A stretch of DNA of 18,277 nucleotides from Candidatus Omnitrophota bacterium (GTDB taxonomy: Bacteria > Omnitrophota > Gorgyraeia > JABMRN01 > RBG-13-46-9). Where the stretch lies: NCBI GenBank assembly GCA_013203315.1, contig JABMQJ010000023.1, positions 1 through 18,277 of the forward strand. Reading direction: 5' to 3'. Shown one piece after another: positions 10 to 18,277 of this stretch (position 1 is its first letter; each line of letters begins with the position of its first letter). The notes under the pieces are model-generated. The model did no database searches and had not been told where the DNA came from. It worked only from the letters and a program-made list of their open reading frames with translations. The position numbers and the translations under genes are program-made.

Positions 10-86
10 GGGCACATGGCTTAGTTGGTTAAAGCGCTGCCCTCACATGGCAGAGATCGAAGGGTCAAATCCTTCTGTGCCCACCA
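10..86 (+). tRNA. tRNA-Val, anticodon CAC, encoded CCA end
   Basis: Full cloverleaf: acceptor GGGCACA(10-16)/TGTGCCC(76-82), D-stem GCTT/AAGC, anticodon stem CTGCC/GGCAG with loop CT-CAC-AT (CAC 44-46), T-stem GAAGG/CCTTC, discriminator A83, CCA 84-86. The T-loop reads GTCAAAT instead of TTCRAAT. Confidence 0.95.
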
Positions 87-1307: not shown

Positions 1308-1714
1308 TAGCAGAGTAGGTCGGGTGGTCGCCCTTATGTCAACTTTGTTGACGCAAGGGAGGAAAGTCCGAGCTCCGGAGAGCAGCGTAGCGGCTAACAG
1401 CCGTCCATCGAAAGGTGAGGACTTCCCCCGTGGCGCTTTAGCGCCACTCGGGACGATTGCCAACGAAAATGCGGCAATCGAGAGCCACAGAGACGAGTCT
1501 CTCCGCCTATGGCGGAGAGGGTGAAACGCGGCAATCTCTACGCGGAGCAAGGCCGAATAAATCCCGATCAAGGAGTTGCTCATTCCTACTGAGAGTTATC
1601 AGTATCGGGAAGGGTAGGCTGCACGAGGCTGGCAGTAATGGCAGCCCTAGATAGATGGCCATCGGCGGGCGTAACGCCCGCGCACAGAACTCGGCTTACA
1701 GGCCTACTCTGCTA
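1308..1714 (+). ncRNA. rnpB: RNase P RNA, bacterial type A variant
   Basis: Universal motifs GAGGAAAGTCCGAGCTCC (~1359-1376), CCACAGAGACGA, GGTGAAAC, GGAGCAAGGCC, CTAGATAGATG and ACAGAACTCGGCTTA. P1 is TAGCAGAGTAGGTC(1308-1321)/GGCCTACTCTGCTA(1701-1714). P6 GAGC/GCTC, P16, P17, P18 and P19 are recognisable. Mature ends are uncertain by a few nt. Confidence 0.97.
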
Positions 1715-3539: not shown

Positions 3540-3938
3540 ATGATAGAATCACGCCTTTTTAAAAACATTATATGTATAATATTATGTGCAGTAAGTGCGC
3601 TTTTTTACGTTCACCAGGAGGTGGAGATTATTAAAACAGGACTATGCATAAATGAAAACCGCCGCGAAGTATCCTTCCTGCTTGACCAATACCGCTCTTT
3701 GGTATATAATCTTTCCAGGTTGGAATCGCCAAAGAGGGTTGAGGATACGCTTTCCGAAAGCGAGATCATGCTTTGCATGCCGAAAATTGAAAACATACGC
3801 CACTTTGACAGGATAAGCAAGACGTATGCCGAAGGCAGTCAAAGCAAAAAAGGTAAAGAATCTCTTTTGGCGCGTATATTTGACCGCTTTTCTACAAAAG
3901 CAGAAGCAAAGGTTATCACGAACAGCTATAAGCCTTAA
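3540..3938 (+). CDS. ftsL: Divergent FtsL-like bitopic cell division protein with C-terminal extension
   Basis: Occupies the ftsL position between rsmH and ftsI. Short N-terminus, one TM segment (IICIILCAVSALFYV), heptad-like region, LESPKRVE resembling the FtsL L-x-x-P-x-R-I/V-E motif. Confidence 0.7.
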   Translation: MIESRLFKNIICIILCAVSALFYVHQEVEIIKTGLCINENRREVSFLLDQYRSLVYNLSRLESPKRVEDTLSESEIMLCMPKIENIRHFDRISKTYAEGSQSKKGKESLLARIFDRFSTKAEAKVITNSYKP

Positions 3939-3983: not shown

Positions 3984-5687
3984 GTGCATATAAACTTTAG
4001 TAAAACTCGCCAAATTCTTGTTTTTATTTTATTCATTTCTCTATTTACTATCCTTTTTGCGCGCCTATTATATATACAAATTATGAGAAGTAAGCCATTA
4101 AGAGATATGGCTTACCAGCAGCATAAGATTTTCGTTAAGCTCAATCCCAAGCGCGGCACGATGTATGACAGAAGAAACAGGGTATTGGCAATCTATCTGG
4201 ACACCGCGTCTATTTATGCAGTGCCAAAAGAGATAAGTGATAAAGAAAATACCGCATTCATTTTAGCGGAAGAATTAGGACTGGACGAAACGGATATTTT
4301 AAAAAAGCTCGAAAAAGACAATTACTTTGCCTGGATAAAAAGAAGGGTCGATACTGATACCGCGCAAAAAATAAAGGCACTTGGCTTGAAAGGGGTAGAT
4401 CTTACAAGCGAACCAAAAAGATTTTATCCCGGAGGAAAGCTTGCGTGTCACGTGCTGGGCATAACGAATATCGACAATAAGGGCATTGAGGGCCTTGAGC
4501 TTTACTATAACAGAGAGCTCTCCGGAGAGTACGGCTTTAGGCGTTCCATGAAAGACGCTAAGAAAAGGGAAATTATTTCTTTTGAAAAAGATGCCCTTCC
4601 TGCGCGCGACGGTGAAAGCCTTGTTCTTACCATTGACGAGGTTATACAGCATATCATTGAGCAGGAAGCGGAAAAAATTGTAAGCCTGCACAAACCAAAA
4701 GCTGTTTCCATAGTTGCCGAGAAACCCCAAACAGGCGAAATTCTCGGGCTTGCCGTTTATCCGTGGTTTGATCTGAATAACACCGGTAATATTAAAGCGG
4801 ATGCTTTAAGAAACAGGGCCATATCGGATTCCTTTGAGCCGGGAAGTGTATTTAAAATAATTACCGCAAGCGCAGTCCTGGAGGAAGGCGTCGCTGATTT
4901 CGATAGTGAATTTTTTTGCGAAAACGGAGCCTATAAGGTTGGTAATCGCGTTCTTCATGACTATAAACCTCACGGCACGCTCAATTTTCGGGAAATCATA
5001 GAAAAGTCAAGCAATATAGGCACAGTTAAGGTAGCAGCGCTTCTGGGGAAAGAAAAGTTATCCGCTTATATAAAACGATTCAATTTCGGAAGCCTAGTAG
5101 ACATAGATCTGCCCGGAGAGGTTTCCGGGATAATGCGTGATCCGTCAGGTTGGTCGAGCTCGGATATGACCACAATACCTATGGGGCAGGGCATTGCGAT
5201 CACGGCCGTGCAACTCGTTTCGTGTGTTTCTGTTATTGCAAACGGGGGCGTTCTAATGCGTCCGTACGTTGTTAGTAGGTTCTTAAATGCCGAAGGCGCC
5301 ACGATCGGTGAAAACAAACCAAAACCCATAAGGCGCGTAATTTCGAAAGAAACAGCGCATAAAGTCAAGGAGTTGATGGAGGGCGTTGTCCTGCGCGGCA
5401 CGGGTAAGCCGGCGGGACTTTCGAACTTCAGAGCGGGGGGTAAGACCGGAACAGCCCAGAAGGTAAGCCCGCGAGGCGGCTATTATAAAAATAAATATAT
5501 CGCTTCTTTTGTAGGATTCGCGCCGTTTGATAAACCCAGAGTATCTTTAGTCATTTGCGTGGATGAACCCAGAGGGCAGCACTTTGGTAGCCGCGTGGCA
5601 GGGCCGGCATTTAAGAACATAATGGAAAAAATATTGTCTTACATGGAAGTCGAGAGCGATAAAGTTGAAATTAAAAAAACTTCTTAA
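3984..5687 (+). CDS. ftsI: Class B penicillin-binding protein (divisome transpeptidase FtsI/PBP3)
   Basis: N-terminal TM, RGTMYDRRN, RFYPGG, GIEGLE, LTID, active-site motifs EPGSVFK (SxxK), SSN and KTGT. No PASTA domains. GTG start. Confidence 0.95.
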   Translation: MHINFSKTRQILVFILFISLFTILFARLLYIQIMRSKPLRDMAYQQHKIFVKLNPKRGTMYDRRNRVLAIYLDTASIYAVPKEISDKENTAFILAEELGLDETDILKKLEKDNYFAWIKRRVDTDTAQKIKALGLKGVDLTSEPKRFYPGGKLACHVLGITNIDNKGIEGLELYYNRELSGEYGFRRSMKDAKKREIISFEKDALPARDGESLVLTIDEVIQHIIEQEAEKIVSLHKPKAVSIVAEKPQTGEILGLAVYPWFDLNNTGNIKADALRNRAISDSFEPGSVFKIITASAVLEEGVADFDSEFFCENGAYKVGNRVLHDYKPHGTLNFREIIEKSSNIGTVKVAALLGKEKLSAYIKRFNFGSLVDIDLPGEVSGIMRDPSGWSSSDMTTIPMGQGIAITAVQLVSCVSVIANGGVLMRPYVVSRFLNAEGATIGENKPKPIRRVISKETAHKVKELMEGVVLRGTGKPAGLSNFRAGGKTGTAQKVSPRGGYYKNKYIASFVGFAPFDKPRVSLVICVDEPRGQHFGSRVAGPAFKNIMEKILSYMEVESDKVEIKKTS

Positions 5688-8475
5688 CGACATAAAAATA
5701 AAAGCAAATCCGCGGATCAAGGATTTGGAAATAACATCTGTCGCCGTGAACTCAAAAGGCGTAAAAAAAGGAAGCCTTTTTATTGCCATAAAAGGTTCGA
5801 GATTTGACGGGCACGGCTTCATAGGCGAAGCATTCAAGAGGGGTGCCCTCGCCGCCATAGCAGAGGAAGCAGAAACCCTCAAAATGGCCCCGGATAAGCT
5901 CAAAAACATTGTTCGAGTCAAGGATACAAGAAAAGCGCTTTCGGTTGCAGCGAAAAATTTTTATCACTCGCCCTCAGAAAAACTAAAAGTCATCGGGATA
6001 ACAGGGACAAACGGCAAAACAACAATATCCCTCTTAATCGAAAGCATATTTAACGCCGCGCGTATTCCATGTGGGGTTATGGGCACGATTGAAAATAAGA
6101 TAGGCAACCGCCGCATCCCGGCCGAGCGCACCACTCCGGATGCGCTTGGGGTAAATGTTCTTCTCGATCAAATGCTGAAAAATGGGCTAAAGGCTTCTGC
6201 GATGGAGGTCTCAAGTCACGGCCTTGACCAGAAAAGAGTCGATGATATATCTTTTGACGCAGCCATTTTTACTAACCTTACCCACGAACACCTTGATTAT
6301 CATGGTGACTTATCGCGTTATTTCAAGAGTAAAACAAAGATTTTCACGCGCCTTAAGAAAGAAGGCGTTGCCATACTGAACGTCGATGATCGCCGCGTAG
6401 CATCATGCGCGAAAAATATGACCGAACACAAATATATTACATACGGCCTGAAGAAGACCGCTTACGTTAGTGCTGACATAAGAAGGATTGACCTGGACGG
6501 ATCAGCCTTTACGGTCAAGCTGCGCGGAAAGGGCGCGTTTTTAATTAACACGAGGTTGATTGGGTTGCACAATGTCTCCAACATCCTTGCTGCCGTGGCA
6601 GCCGGGGTCACGCAGGGCATAGATTTACGCGATATAAAAAATGGCATTGAGCGGGTAAACAGCATAAAGGGTAGGGTCGAGCCCGTGTGCACTGAAGAGG
6701 GGTTCAAGGTTTTTGTCGATTATGCCCATACTCATAATGCCCTGGAAAATGTTCTTACGTTTTTGAGCACGATTAAACGAAATAGAATTATTACAGTTTT
6801 TGGTTGCGGCGGCGATAGGGATAGGTCAAAAAGGCCTTTAATGGGGCGGGTCGCACAGAAATTGTCGGATTTCGTTATTGTAACCAGCGATAACCCGCGT
6901 AGCGAAGATCCCGGTAAAATAGCTCGCGACATAGAGCGCGGTATGAAAAAACAAAAGTATGTTGTCGTGAAAGACAGAAAAAAAGCTATCGAAACGGCAT
7001 TAAAAATCGCCTGCCCGGGGGATATTGTGTTAATAGCCGGTAAGGGCCATGAAAATGTTCAGATTATAGGAAAAAGAGAAATACCCTTTAATGACAAGAA
7101 GGTAGCCGAACAGGCAATAAATGAGATCAAAGCAAAAAAATCAAAAATGCCGATAGAACACGTTTTAAAAAGCCCCGGAAGTATTTCCATAGATACGCGA
7201 ACCATAAAAAAAGGCGATACATTCCTCGCTATACAGGGCGAGAGATTTGACGGCCATTGCTTTGTTAAAGAAGCATTTAAAAAAGGCGCGAAACTCGCCA
7301 TTGTTTCAAAAATACCACAATTACCCACAGCTTATAAAAGCCGCCTTATTTGCGTAAAAAATACTGTTAAAACTCTCGGCGACATAGCAAGGCTGCGCAG
7401 GTTAGAATTCAACACTCCGGTTGTCGCCATTACGGGAAGTAACGGCAAGACAACCGCAAAAGACCTTGCGGCCCACGTTCTAGGGTCCGGCTACAATGTT
7501 TTAAAAAACGAAACTTCAAAAAATAATCTAATAGGCCTTCCGCTCACGCTTTGCAAGCTTCAGAAAAAACACGGCGTGGCGGTGCTTGAAATGGGAATGA
7601 ACCACTTTGGTGAGATCAGGAAATTAAGCGAAATTGCAAAACCCAATATAGGGGTCGTGACGAATATCGGACCTTCGCACCTGGAATTTTTGGGTACACT
7701 TAGGAACGTTTATAAAGCAAAGGCGGAATTATTTGAATGCCTAACCAAGAAGGATACCGTCGTGCTGAATGCAGACGACTCATATCTCCGGAATCCAAAA
7801 AATGTAAAGGCAAAAAAAGTATATTTTGGTATAGAAAAAAAATGTTTTTTTCAGGCAAAAAATTTGATACATGAGAAAAACAGATGGACTTTTTCTCTGG
7901 GGAAAGAAAAAGGTTTTGAGCTAACGCTTTTAGGAAAGCATAATATCTACAATGCGTTGATAGCTATTGCAGTCGCAAGACAATTCGGCATCGAATTTTC
8001 CACAATCAAAAAGCGGATAAAAACATTCCGGCCGTCCTGTCCTATGAGACTCCAGTCCAAGCGCGTAAGGGGGGTAGAGATATTGGATGACAGTTACAAC
8101 TCGAACCCTCTGTCTATGGAATGCGCGATAGATACGCTCGCAGGACACGTTACGCGCGGGAAACGCATCGTTGTCACGGGCGACATGCTGGAATTGGGAA
8201 AAAACGCAAAAAGCATGCATGAAGAAGTTGGCGGTTTAATCGCACGCGGTCCGTTTGATACGCTTATAACGATGGGTAGGTTATCACGCTTTACAAGAAA
8301 CAGAGCAAGGGATAGGGGCATGCAGAGCCTGTATCACGCTGCATCGCACCGGGGCGCGGCCAGTCTTCTAAAAAAGATCACAAGGCCGGGAGATATTGTT
8401 CTAGTAAAGGGCTCCAGGGGCATGCAGATGGAAAAGGTTATAGAGGAGTTTAAAAGCTTGCCCGCAGGCAAGTAG
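5665..8475 (+). CDS. murE-murF: Fused MurE-MurF (meso-DAP ligase plus D-Ala-D-Ala adding enzyme)
   Basis: 936 aa uninterrupted. N-half: GITGTNGKTT, MEVSSHGL, TNLTHEHLDYH, DYAHT, GCGGDRD, SDNPRSE (DAP type), AGKGHE. C-half: SIDTR, RFDGH, ITGSNGKTT, LEMGMNHFGEI, DDSYNSNP, GDMLELG, VKGSRGM. TTG start overlapping ftsI. Confidence 0.96.
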   Translation: MKLKKLLNDIKIKANPRIKDLEITSVAVNSKGVKKGSLFIAIKGSRFDGHGFIGEAFKRGALAAIAEEAETLKMAPDKLKNIVRVKDTRKALSVAAKNFYHSPSEKLKVIGITGTNGKTTISLLIESIFNAARIPCGVMGTIENKIGNRRIPAERTTPDALGVNVLLDQMLKNGLKASAMEVSSHGLDQKRVDDISFDAAIFTNLTHEHLDYHGDLSRYFKSKTKIFTRLKKEGVAILNVDDRRVASCAKNMTEHKYITYGLKKTAYVSADIRRIDLDGSAFTVKLRGKGAFLINTRLIGLHNVSNILAAVAAGVTQGIDLRDIKNGIERVNSIKGRVEPVCTEEGFKVFVDYAHTHNALENVLTFLSTIKRNRIITVFGCGGDRDRSKRPLMGRVAQKLSDFVIVTSDNPRSEDPGKIARDIERGMKKQKYVVVKDRKKAIETALKIACPGDIVLIAGKGHENVQIIGKREIPFNDKKVAEQAINEIKAKKSKMPIEHVLKSPGSISIDTRTIKKGDTFLAIQGERFDGHCFVKEAFKKGAKLAIVSKIPQLPTAYKSRLICVKNTVKTLGDIARLRRLEFNTPVVAITGSNGKTTAKDLAAHVLGSGYNVLKNETSKNNLIGLPLTLCKLQKKHGVAVLEMGMNHFGEIRKLSEIAKPNIGVVTNIGPSHLEFLGTLRNVYKAKAELFECLTKKDTVVLNADDSYLRNPKNVKAKKVYFGIEKKCFFQAKNLIHEKNRWTFSLGKEKGFELTLLGKHNIYNALIAIAVARQFGIEFSTIKKRIKTFRPSCPMRLQSKRVRGVEILDDSYNSNPLSMECAIDTLAGHVTRGKRIVVTGDMLELGKNAKSMHEEVGGLIARGPFDTLITMGRLSRFTRNRARDRGMQSLYHAASHRGAASLLKKITRPGDIVLVKGSRGMQMEKVIEEFKSLPAGK

Positions 8476-15373: not shown

Positions 15374-16352
15374 ACCAAATAACGCTAAAAAAACCGGTTA
15401 CGGAAGAATCGCAGTGCTTGCCGGCGGGCCTTCAAGTGAGCGTGAAATAAGCATAAAAAGCGGAAGGGCCGTTTACGAAGCGCTTAAGCGCAAAAATCAG
15501 GATGTATTTTTTTTGGATGTTGGAACCGATGTCCTCGAAAAATTAAAAAACGCCGGTTTTGACATAGCTTTTATTGCGTTACATGGTAGGTTCGGAGAAG
15601 ACGGAACAGTTCAAGCTATGCTGGAAGAATTGAAGATTCCTTATACCGGATCCGGGGTTCATGCTTCCAGGCTTGCGATGGACAAGGTGGCTTCGAGAAA
15701 GGTTTTTTCGGCAAGCGGAATTAAAGTACCACGCTATCAAGTTGCCAATAAGAATGAAGACCTGCGCGGTATTCTAAAAGGCTTTAAAACGCCTTTTGTC
15801 GTAAAACCGCAAAGCGAAGGCTCGAGCATAGGCCTTACCATAGTAAGAGACAAAGCGCGCCTTGAAGAGGCGCTTAGAAAAGCCTTCCTGTATCATGAGA
15901 ATGCATTGGTGGGGGAATACATACACGGCAGAGAGCTTACAGTAGGCATTCTTGAAAACAAGGCTTTACCGGTGATAGAAATTGTCGCAAAAAATCAGGT
16001 ATATGATTACGAGGCAAAATATGAAAACAAAGCGACGGAATATATTGTCCCGGCGAATTTAAGCGAAAACGAGAAAAGGGCTGCACAGGCCGCCGCGTTA
16101 AAGGCGCATTCCCTGCTTGGCTGCAGGGATTTTTCAAGGGTTGACATGCGCATGAACGACAAGGGGGATGTTTTTGTCTTGGAGGTAAACACGATACCCG
16201 GCATGACAAAGCGTAGCCTTCTACCGAAAGCGGCCCTGGCGGAAAACATAAATTTTGAGGATTTGTGCATGAAACTTACTGAATTAGCACACAAAAGGGG
16301 GGAAGTAAAAAATGGCGAAAAGCAAGTGGAACAAAAAGAACAGCTCCAATAA
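15366..16352 (+). CDS. ddl: D-alanine--D-alanine ligase
   Basis: GGPSSEREIS, LHGRFGEDG, PYTGS, MDK, VKP-x-x-EGSSIG, omega loop YDYEAKY (Tyr type), RVD, LEVNTIPG. The TTG start is uncertain. Confidence 0.96.
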   Translation: MFKPNNAKKTGYGRIAVLAGGPSSEREISIKSGRAVYEALKRKNQDVFFLDVGTDVLEKLKNAGFDIAFIALHGRFGEDGTVQAMLEELKIPYTGSGVHASRLAMDKVASRKVFSASGIKVPRYQVANKNEDLRGILKGFKTPFVVKPQSEGSSIGLTIVRDKARLEEALRKAFLYHENALVGEYIHGRELTVGILENKALPVIEIVAKNQVYDYEAKYENKATEYIVPANLSENEKRAAQAAALKAHSLLGCRDFSRVDMRMNDKGDVFVLEVNTIPGMTKRSLLPKAALAENINFEDLCMKLTELAHKRGEVKNGEKQVEQKEQLQ

Positions 16353-17118
16353 AAAACAGAATAAAAATCGGCATAAAACTGAAATAAGAAAACTCCTACC
16401 GAAGAAGCCGTTTCCGAAAAAAATCGTACATTCCGCAGTTATCTTTATTTTGATTTTAGGTGCATTTTTATTTTTGAAAAATTCAAGCTATTTTAAATTA
16501 GAAAAAATAGACATAGTTGATGTTCGTCGCGCCACAGAGCTTGACGCCAATGCAATGCTTCCTCTATACAAGGGGAGAAACATTTTTGAAATCGATATCA
16601 ATTCCATAGCATCCTCGATTGAAAGTGACTACCCTGTCATAAAAGAGGCGGTTGTAAAAAGGGTGCTGCCGAACCGTCTCGAAATCGACATTGTCTCACG
16701 TGTGCCCGTCGCCAGAATAAAGTCGCGCAAAATTTTTACGATAGACAGAAGCGGAATGGTTCTTTCACCCGGGATAAAAAGTCATGACCTACCTGTTGTC
16801 ACCGGGTTTTCAATGTGGACAAAAATTCGTACGGGTGAGAAGCTGAAAAATCAACAACTTGAAAGCGCCTTTTCCCTGATCGACGCGCTCGGGGAAAGTG
16901 CTCCTGGTGCGAATTATAAAGTAGCAGAGATCGATGCGTCGAACTACAAAAATCTTTCCTTTTATCTAGAAAACGGCATCGAGGTAAAAATAGGCGGCGA
17001 GGATTTTCCGAATCGCCTCAAGGCGCTAAAAGTTACCCTGGCAAATCCGAAACTGAATAAAGACAACATTAAATACATTGATTTGCGTTTCAGAGACGTA
17101 GTGATAGGCCCTAAATGA
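16312..17118 (+). CDS. ftsQ: Cell division protein FtsQ/DivIB
   Basis: Basic cytoplasmic N-terminus, single TM, POTRA-like GRNIF...IKEAVVKRVLPNRLEI, C-terminal YIDLRF. Purine-rich SD upstream. Located between ddl and ftsA. Confidence 0.92.
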   Translation: MAKSKWNKKNSSNKKQNKNRHKTEIRKLLPKKPFPKKIVHSAVIFILILGAFLFLKNSSYFKLEKIDIVDVRRATELDANAMLPLYKGRNIFEIDINSIASSIESDYPVIKEAVVKRVLPNRLEIDIVSRVPVARIKSRKIFTIDRSGMVLSPGIKSHDLPVVTGFSMWTKIRTGEKLKNQQLESAFSLIDALGESAPGANYKVAEIDASNYKNLSFYLENGIEVKIGGEDFPNRLKALKVTLANPKLNKDNIKYIDLRFRDVVIGPK

Positions 17119-18176
17119 AGAGACTGGTAACTGTCATAGACCTCGGATCAAATAAAATCGCGGCTTGCGCAGCCGCCATAGACAGGGACGGACATTCGTC
17201 TGTCGTAGCGCTTGATAATTTGTATTCACGCGGCATAAACGGCGGCGACATAACTGATCTTAACAAGGCAATCGAGGACTTATCCTCCGTAGTGAAGAGG
17301 CTGGAGCGACAAAATAAGAGAAAGATAAAAAATGTATTTGTCACGGCAAGCGGCATTGACATAGAAACCGATGTCTCGCGCGGCATGGTGCCGCTCGCAA
17401 AAACACCCAGGGAAATTACAAGAAGGGATGTCAAAAAATGTCTCGATATCGCAAAAATGACAAGGCTGCCGATGGAGCGTACGATTCTGGAAAGCGTCGT
17501 GCGGGGTTTTTATATTGACGGCGGAAAAATGGGTATTACAAATCCCGTAGGGCTTTACGGGATGAAGCTGGAAGTTGAAACTTTTATCGTAACTACCAGT
17601 CAATCCAAGCTTCAAAATATCGCAAAATGCATAGACCACGCCGGATTCCTACTTGATGGCATACATCTTTCGAGCATTGCTTCCGCCAACGGCGTATTGG
17701 AAACCGAAGAAAAAGAAAATGGTGTTCTTCTGCTGGATATAGGTGAAACGTTAACCGAAACCCTCACTTTTAGGGACAATATGCTAAAAGATCTGCGTGT
17801 TATCAAAAAAGGCGCAAGCAGTGTTTTGGATAAAAATATGTGCGTGGACAAGTCAAAGCTTGACGCGCTTCTTGGGGGATTGGCAGATGCCCTTTCCGGT
17901 GAAAATGAGAACTTTTCTTCTGTAGTTGTAACCGGGGGCGGTGCTCTTCTTGACGGCGCGATCGAAGAGGCGGAGAAGATATTTAAAGTACCCGCCAGGA
18001 TCGGTATTGTAAAAAAAGCAGGTCGTAACCTAAATTCGCAAGACGCCATTATCCACACCTCAACAGTCGGCCTCATTAATAGCATTGCTAAAGATTACAA
18101 AGCCCGCCAGACCTACGGAAACCCCATCCACAAAGCCTTCCGCAAAGTCCTGGACATATACGAAAGCTACTTCTAA
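17115..18176 (+). CDS. ftsA: Divergent, shortened FtsA (353 aa)
   Basis: IDLGSNKI (phosphate 1), SRGINGGDITD, subdomain 1C (ITRRDV...FYIDG...ITNPVGLYGMKLEV), EEKENGVLLLDIG, VVVTGGGALLDG, PARIG, TVGL, C-terminal amphipathic helix ending ESYF. The subdomain 2B region is much shorter than canonical. Confidence 0.9.
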   Translation: MKRLVTVIDLGSNKIAACAAAIDRDGHSSVVALDNLYSRGINGGDITDLNKAIEDLSSVVKRLERQNKRKIKNVFVTASGIDIETDVSRGMVPLAKTPREITRRDVKKCLDIAKMTRLPMERTILESVVRGFYIDGGKMGITNPVGLYGMKLEVETFIVTTSQSKLQNIAKCIDHAGFLLDGIHLSSIASANGVLETEEKENGVLLLDIGETLTETLTFRDNMLKDLRVIKKGASSVLDKNMCVDKSKLDALLGGLADALSGENENFSSVVVTGGGALLDGAIEEAEKIFKVPARIGIVKKAGRNLNSQDAIIHTSTVGLINSIAKDYKARQTYGNPIHKAFRKVLDIYESYF

Positions 18177-18192
18177 CCCCAACCCCGATGAT

Positions 18193-18219
18193 TATATGCT
18201 AACGGAATGAGAGGGTATT
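18193..18219. repeat. Second copy of the element at 1775-1801 (left arm and loop only within the window)
   Basis: TATATGCTAACGGAATGAGAGGGTATT vs TATATTCTAACGGAATGAGAGGGTATT, one mismatch, same orientation. Confidence 0.85.
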
Positions 18220-18277
18220 GTGTGCGACTTGGCACGGTAACGAAGGAGCTCTTTCTTCTTCAAAAAATTTTAGTAAG

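Follow-up and report, generated by a model that had tools for sequence, protein, structure and literature searches.

In-frame loss of subdomain 2B from the cell division protein FtsA in Omnitrophota, a phylum in which FtsZ was not detected

Introduction

The actin-like protein FtsA is classically regarded as the membrane tether of the Z-ring. Here, we describe a structurally reduced FtsA encoded at the end of an 18,277-nucleotide stretch of DNA from a Candidatus Omnitrophota bacterium (contig JABMQJ010000023.1, termed the window below), from which about 50-60 residues of subdomain 2B, the FtsZ-binding module, have been deleted in frame. The deletion recurs across relatives and is maintained under purifying selection, and no FtsZ was found either in the genome itself or in any of 201 genomes of the phylum. 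The window is one whole contig (C22) of a 1.5-Mb genome, which was assembled into 32 contigs with 97% completeness and 0.4% contamination. The explanation that we regard as reasonably probable is that, in a phylum without FtsZ, subdomain 2B was deleted in frame and the remaining FtsA would sit at the membrane and serve the septal peptidoglycan machinery as an adaptor or activator. The deletion is classed as a natural separation-of-function allele of a phylum that lacks FtsZ.

The deletion of subdomain 2B in sequence and structure

The gene and the parts of its product that are referred to below are located in the window as follows.

17115..18176, plus strand: ftsA, 2B-less form, 353 amino acids, ATG start (open reading frame, TIGR01174 and fold match)
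17358..17594, plus strand: subdomain 1C (SHS2 insert), residues 82-160 (PF02491, SHS2_FTSA, E 7.1e-16)
17736..17756, plus strand: phosphate-2 motif DIGETLT (canonical DIGGGT), residues 208-214 (sequence)
17805..17900, plus strand: remnant of subdomain 2B, residues 231-262 (alignment, interval counts and model)
17925..17945, plus strand: adenosine motif VVTGGGA, residues 271-277, kept (sequence)
18123..18173, plus strand: C-terminal amphipathic helix (membrane-targeting sequence) with terminal YF (model helix 337-352)

The span 17736-17945 that had first drawn attention covers residues 208-277. The interval from the phosphate-2 Asp (D208) to the Thr of VVTGGG (T273) was counted as 65 amino acids, exactly as proposed in the original prediction from the sequence, while the same interval spans 113-127 amino acids in 41 full-length Omnitrophota FtsA and about 125 in E. 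coli-type FtsA, close to the roughly 120 that had been quoted for the latter. When the protein was compared with solved E. coli-type FtsA, residues 2-234 paired with 7-236 of the solved chains and 268-321 with 330-383, which leaves 34 amino acids opposite 94 in those chains. Across 35 aligned FtsA sequences of Omnitrophota, the stretch that links the final 2A strand to the strand preceding the adenosine motif amounts to 31 amino acids in the window protein, 9-31 in the other short forms, 58 in one intermediate and 78-90 in full-length proteins. The alignment gap relative to full-length relatives falls between C243 and V244, that is, between nucleotides 17843 and 17844, and the reading frame across it is intact.

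An AlphaFold2 model of the window FtsA, built on 78 relatives, reached a mean predicted local distance difference test score (pLDDT) of 91.5 and a predicted template modelling score of 0.87. In the model, strand 223-230 leads into a short turn and a single helix (246-259), followed by strand 269-273, whereas the nearest full-length relative (L019, pLDDT 90.2) is predicted to carry in the same place two helices (233-244 and 248-257), a hairpin (269-274/277-282) and a 26-residue helix (283-308). All of the top solved matches of the model are FtsA structures (Z 33-38, against 22-28 for PilM), led by 7q6f_A with a Z score of 38.2, a root mean square deviation of 1.9 Å and 322 of 382 residues aligned; the T. 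maritima FtsA:FtsZ-peptide complex (4a2a_A) was matched with Z 33.8, and superposition left no intact 2B fold and only one helix of it. In the model, subdomains 1A, 1C and 2A of the actin-like fold are intact, with 1C standing where actin has 1B, and all that is left of 2B is the C-terminal half of its final helix. The earlier proposal that the S12-S13 hairpin and the following helix had been replaced by a short string was thus right in part: the string GASSVLDKNMCVDKSKLDALL occupies residues 233-253 and the hairpin is gone, but the helix after it survives in part.

Identity of the protein and its retained motifs

The window protein passed the FtsA equivalog model TIGR01174 with 194.3 bits (cut-off 175.85) as well as the Pfam models PF02491 (58.8 against 25.4) and PF14450 (36.9 against 31.8), while the PilM model TIGR01175 gave no match to it at E <= 0.01 and merely 26.6 bits, with a cut-off of 133, on one full-length FtsA relative. 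Sequence model, synteny and fold agree that the gene is a true FtsA orthologue. Since the FtsZ-peptide site of 2B is missing, the protein is FtsA by descent and not an FtsZ tether. Sequence and model alike thus support the original suggestion of a membrane-anchored FtsA that would be unable to tether FtsZ canonically.

Among the regions that are kept, subdomain 1C is the best conserved in the short forms, with a mean pairwise identity of 41.7% compared with 28-36% elsewhere. The C-terminal helix PIHKAFRKVLDIYESYF is a predicted membrane anchor, whose hydrophobic moment of 0.63 (shuffle mean 0.26) was reached by one of 2000 shuffles; at its end F353 is invariant and Y352 occurs in at least 90% of 78 sequences. 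The retention of the frame, of 1C and of this helix had all been noted correctly.

The nucleotide-binding motifs are kept less evenly. DLGSNK and VVTGGGA are present, the latter with a glycine (G274) that is invariant in the 78 sequences, and phosphate 2 reads DIGETLT, without Gly-Gly. The change from DIGGGT to DIGETLT had been read correctly and listed together with the deletion; DIGxxxT(E) proved to be class-wide, full-length FtsA included, and is not linked to the loss of 2B. Many full-length Omnitrophota FtsA also carry strongly degenerate nucleotide motifs (L027, L055, L057 and L063 of family f20; L045-L049 of f29; L038 of f17), with FISYSATH, YMSYSAVH or NLGKSKLE at phosphate 2 and GDLT, GQPV or GVLS at the adenosine motif, which suggests that ATP binding may have been lost in several lineages of the phylum.

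Recurrence of the short form and selection on it

The exact window protein was found on five contigs from four sources, and a 90%-identical copy lies on a public Omnitrophota contig (L021). Three contigs assembled from individual sequencing runs (9.6-16.7 kb) span positions 16900-18261 with a single differing letter and no insertion or deletion, so that no assembly deletion is seen at the junction in these contigs, which come from one study and may represent the source sample. A fourth run (X4) yielded small contigs that leave 17837-17874 uncovered, while the other three runs bridge it. None of the public runs listed for this DNA was an RNA data set.

The Asp-to-Thr interval was measured in the FtsA of 78 fetched relatives, a set to which short forms had been deliberately added, and fell at 43-70 amino acids in 34 genes, at 94-105 in three and at 113-127 in 41. 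In the unselected sample of 201 genomes, 21 of the best 150 FtsA matches listed were short or intermediate. Among the best 150 representatives of 50%-identity clusters, drawn from 1.8 billion proteins, 140 span both flanks and comprise 30 short, 4 intermediate and 106 full-length forms. The relatives are accordingly not all full-length, and orthologues with the same deletion are numerous. The ratio of nonsynonymous to synonymous substitution rates (dN/dS) in five pairs of short forms was 0.10-0.21, which shows that the short FtsA is under purifying selection. Given that 34 fetched genes from many genomes and 30 clusters share the deletion and that dN/dS is this low, neither chance nor an assembly error explains it.

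Absence of FtsZ and the end of the contig

No match to PF00091, PF12327 or TIGR00065, which cover FtsZ and tubulin, was found in the bacterium's own genome, and PF00091 was likewise silent in 41 relatives (0/41) and across the phylum (0/201 genomes, 151 of which are at least 90% complete); the same searches matched in 13-14 of 14 model genomes used as positive controls. FtsA, in contrast, is present in 200 of the 201 genomes and in all 151 of high quality. An FtsZ-less divisome, one of the two alternatives raised at the outset, is thereby borne out. Searches for ZapA, SepF and MinC in the own genome also gave no match, although these searches are weak, since their controls matched no more than 4-7 of the 14 model genomes.

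The window ends 101 bp past ftsA, where the following element breaks the assembly, which accounts for the lack of any gene after ftsA in the window.

18199..18277, no strand assigned: copy of a dispersed repeat of about 80 bp that ends the contig (20 or more genomic copies, many of which sit exactly at a contig end)

At this repeat the contig depth rises from about 12-17 to 140-314, and a partial copy lies at 1775-1801 of the window. On a contig of the same genus, 532 bp of dispersed repeats separate ftsA from yggS and proC, which come next, and another contig of the own genome (C14) opens with a copy of the repeat followed by the yggS orthologue in a yggS-proC pair, so that C22 probably joins C14. 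The same order of ftsA, repeat and yggS across the contig break implies that the ftsZ slot is empty rather than unassembled. In the single-contig relative G012, ftsA is followed by a 261-amino-acid open reading frame without a Pfam match (L039:7905-8690, plus strand), two PilZ-domain genes and a DUF4416 gene.

Order of evolutionary events

Full-length 2B is the majority state in the phylum and is also found in the other classes sampled, except for one short form (f46). Since FtsZ is absent phylum-wide while most genomes keep 2B, FtsZ would have been lost first, at or before the base of the phylum by parsimony, and 2B would have been deleted later in sub-lineages. The initial idea that the short form is an intermediate toward FtsZ loss is contradicted by this order.

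An FtsA tree computed without the 2B columns places 31 short rows, all of families f1, f2, f5, f26 and f27, in one group together with one full-length f22 row (support of 95 in the Shimodaira-Hasegawa-like approximate likelihood ratio test, SH-aLRT), with a basal polytomy, whereas the three remaining short rows (f10, f15 and f46, the last of another class) are placed elsewhere on long branches. Independent origins of the full deletions were considered and not adopted, as a single clade of all 34 short rows was not rejected by the approximately unbiased (AU) test (p = 0.287). Some genera in the family to which the window belongs retain an even smaller remnant, with intervals of 43-53 amino acids. 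Family f16 carries a separate partial deletion, which removes only the hairpin region and stands beside a full-length member. The f16 proteins form a graded series (L026, L087 and L054 against L059), in which the interval from phosphate 2 to the adenosine motif measures 127, 105, 94 and 94 amino acids.

A census with a profile of 2B only, which matched 154 of 201 genomes at E <= 0.01, was discarded as a count of 2B-less genomes; the profile gave weak matches on other actin-fold proteins (frames of 540-645 amino acids) and missed full-length FtsA, for example that of G053. The state of 2B was scored instead by direct measurement of the interval.

Proposed function and candidate partner

The cited literature, which is represented here and below by excerpts of each paper, bears on the deleted region and on 1C. 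The S12-S13 hairpin and subdomain 2B are required for the interaction with FtsZ, and late division proteins are recruited by 1C (PMC4281207). The cytoplasmic peptide of FtsN binds the IA-IC cleft, and in double filaments of FtsA the lateral contacts are made by IC and the longitudinal ones by IIA-IIB (PMC7613929), while in T. maritima FtsA subdomains 1A and 2B of one protomer touch 1C and 2A of the next (PMC8897712). As modelled, the short form would be devoid of the Z-tether site and of half of the longitudinal contact, and since 2B constitutes that half, canonical FtsA protofilaments are unlikely to be formed by it.

The absence of FtsZ throughout the sampled phylum, together with the retention of FtsA, indicates that the task of FtsA in these bacteria is independent of FtsZ. 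With no Z-ring to hold, the FtsZ-binding 2B may have become dispensable and been deleted in frame in the ancestor shared by a large clade (GTDB-level families f1, f2, f5, f26 and f27), with further trimming in some members. What would remain is the actin-fold core (1A and 2A), 1C and the C-terminal amphipathic membrane anchor, and this short FtsA could act through 1C and the IA-IC cleft on FtsQ, FtsL/B, FtsW and FtsI encoded in its neighbourhood. A likely ligand would be the conserved cytoplasmic peptide (Q-K-E-L-F-x-E-F) at the N-terminus of a bitopic SPOR protein that resembles FtsN.

The own genome encodes MreB, FtsB/DivIC and two SPOR proteins. One of the latter, of 194 amino acids and located outside the window (G000:C24:21951-22532; L092:1144-1728, plus strand), has the architecture of FtsN, namely a cytoplasmic head of about 50 residues, one transmembrane helix, a linker and a C-terminal SPOR domain. 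This protein occurs in 37 of 41 relatives; the Q-K-E-L-F-x-E-F motif at its extreme N-terminus is conserved in lineages with short and with full-length FtsA. An LGVERGK motif directly after the transmembrane helix is conserved as well. It is considered a candidate partner of FtsA. The basic cytoplasmic tail of FtsQ was dropped as a partner of 1C, as it varies from 9 to 40 amino acids across relatives and has no conserved motif. A two-copy co-fold of the window FtsA scored 0.01 against a mark of 0.42, which provides no evidence either way on self-association.

The favoured role, held with somewhat better than even confidence, is that of a membrane-bound adaptor linking the FtsN-like peptide and FtsQLB to FtsWI. 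Several observations weigh against it. The proposed link to the FtsN-like protein derives from architecture and conservation, and nucleotide binding is uncertain, given a phosphate 2 that lacks the canonical glycines and the many relatives with degenerate nucleotide motifs. Moreover, most Omnitrophota have retained 2B long after the loss of FtsZ, and 2B of the full-length forms is barely less conserved than the other regions (22% against 25-31% pairwise identity), which argues for an FtsZ-independent use of 2B and means that its deletion was no automatic consequence of losing FtsZ. Most plausibly, this use lies in polymerisation or nucleotide contacts that were given up or replaced in the short-form clade.

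A more specific version of the adaptor role may be advanced tentatively, at rather less than even confidence: in a minimal FtsZ-independent divisome FtsA would be the sole cytoplasmic organiser, and its 2B-less form would be a non-polymeric or laterally paired switch that relays the FtsN-like peptide to FtsQLB-FtsWI. If this were true, the deletion of 2B would be a natural separation-of-function allele, and the essential ancestral job of FtsA would be the activation of septal wall synthesis rather than the tethering of FtsZ.

Alternative explanations

An alternative that we think unlikely is that polymers of FtsA itself constitute the division cytoskeleton or ring of Omnitrophota, with the 2B-less form polymerising through remodelled longitudinal or lateral 1C-1C contacts. 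The persistence of FtsA in nearly every FtsZ-less genome (200/201) and the conservation of 2B in most lineages would suit a polymerising protein, as would the fact that no part of the short forms is better conserved than 1C, through which double filaments make their lateral contacts (PMC7613929). Against it, the five-family clade lives without 2B, the supplier of the longitudinal IIA-IIB contact, the nucleotide motifs of many members are degenerate, and MreB is present and could be the scaffold. MreB serves as a division scaffold in Chlamydia.

It is considerably less probable that the short FtsA is a relic, decaying or put to another use, with no role in division, for example as a PilM-like adaptor of another envelope machine. 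Its size and fold do come near those of PilM (Z 22-28), its nucleotide motif is altered, and one short form carries the label 'hypothetical protein' in a database copy; however, the frames are intact with dN/dS of 0.10-0.21, the place behind and overlapping ftsQ is fixed in the dcw (division and cell wall) cluster, conservation extends to the membrane anchor and the terminal YF, and the window protein passes TIGR01174 and matches no PilM model. An artefact, whether a mis-assembled deletion or an ftsZ hidden in the assembly gap past the contig end or too divergent to be detected, would draw on a window that stops 101 bp past ftsA at the normal place of ftsZ in a genome of 32 contigs, but it is already largely refuted and almost negligible in view of the deletion in 34 fetched genes and 30 cluster representatives, the exact protein on five contigs, the dispersed repeat at the contig end with C14 starting repeat-yggS in the same-genus order, the unrelated genes after ftsA in single-contig G012, and FtsZ models that remain silent in all genomes searched, up to 201, while their controls match.

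The dcw cluster and its surroundings

The dcw cluster of the window is complete and runs mraZ-rsmH-(ftsL?)-ftsI-murEF-mraY-murD-ftsW-murG-murC-murB-ddl-ftsQ-ftsA, with ftsA last, the stop of ftsQ and the start of ftsA overlapping by 4 nucleotides.

16312..17118, plus strand: ftsQ (POTRA_1 and FtsQ_DivIB_C; Pfam and coordinates)

Within the cluster, a single open reading frame of 936 amino acids (5665-8475, plus strand) contains the Mur-ligase N, M and C domains twice and resembles a murE-murF fusion, and one of 132 amino acids without a Pfam match (3540-3938, plus strand) separates rsmH from ftsI, where ftsL is usually located. Upstream of the cluster are found a tRNA (10-83, plus strand), a CT398-like coiled-coil/zinc-ribbon reading frame (176-895), an RNase H-like reading frame (865-1305) and a bacterial RNase P RNA of class A (1312-1714, plus strand; 184 bits).

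Comparison with known systems

Canonical FtsA, as known from E. coli, Vibrio maritimus and Thermotoga maritima (PDB 7Q6D, 7Q6F and 4A2A), has subdomains 1A, 1C and 2A and a C-terminal amphipathic anchor in common with the window form, and in both cases the gene follows ftsQ in the dcw cluster. The window form differs from it by the loss of about 60 residues of 2B, which correspond to two helices, the S12-S13 hairpin and one half of the helix that comes next, and hence of the site for the FtsZ tail and part of the longitudinal contact, as well as by a phosphate 2 without Gly-Gly and a genome without ftsZ. Engineered deletions of S12-S13/2B in E. coli FtsA (Rico et al. 2004, via PMC4281207 and PMC7613929) removed the same part, abolished the interaction with FtsZ and showed the functions of 1C to be separable. 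Those were laboratory alleles, lethal or filamenting in an FtsZ-dependent cell, as far as the excerpts report, whereas the present deletion is natural, fixed in a clade, under purifying selection and found in FtsZ-less bacteria.

PilM of the type IV pilus (PDB 2YCH and 5EOU) resembles the short FtsA in its length of about 350 amino acids and its actin fold with a 1C-type insert, and is described in the excerpted sources as binding the N-terminal peptide of bitopic PilN in its IA-IC cleft, a parallel to the binding proposed here for the FtsN-like peptide. Its structures nevertheless match the model worse (Z 22-28 against 33-38), there is no family match, and the gene for PilM lies outside the dcw cluster. 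Nor is PilM known to have a C-terminal membrane helix.

Chlamydiota and Planctomycetota, which like Omnitrophota belong to the PVC (Planctomycetes-Verrucomicrobia-Chlamydiae) bacteria, keep peptidoglycan and dcw genes and lack FtsZ, according to excerpts of PMC5147048, PMC12283558 and PMC8178401, but they have mostly lost FtsA as well, while Omnitrophota keep it in 200 of 201 genomes, here in trimmed form. A figure legend in Pende et al. 2021 (PMC8178401) lists Omnitrophica with Planctomycetes and Chlamydiae as FtsZ-less, Henriques et al. 2025, in the part quoted, place Omnitrophota among phyla described as having 'highly conserved' dcw genes, and a 2025 review, in its excerpt, calls Planctomycetes the only known free-living FtsZ-less bacteria. 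The main text of Seymour et al. 2023 makes no mention of FtsZ, FtsA or MreB. No description of a 2B-less FtsA was found in the literature searched, supplements and the dcw-evolution paper of Megrian et al. 2022 lying outside its scope. The absence of FtsZ in Omnitrophica was already noted in the 2021 legend, and the 2B-less form is classed as a new structural variant of FtsA.

Significance

A phylum that keeps FtsA without FtsZ, and in which a large clade has dropped 2B, amounts to a knock-out experiment performed by evolution. Its outcome confirms 2B as the FtsZ module and reveals a selectable function of FtsA that is independent of FtsZ, for the testing of which the short FtsA offers a small and confidently foldable protein. 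The finding also bears on how walled bacteria divide without FtsZ, and the phylum-wide absence of FtsZ from Omnitrophota is worth stating explicitly.

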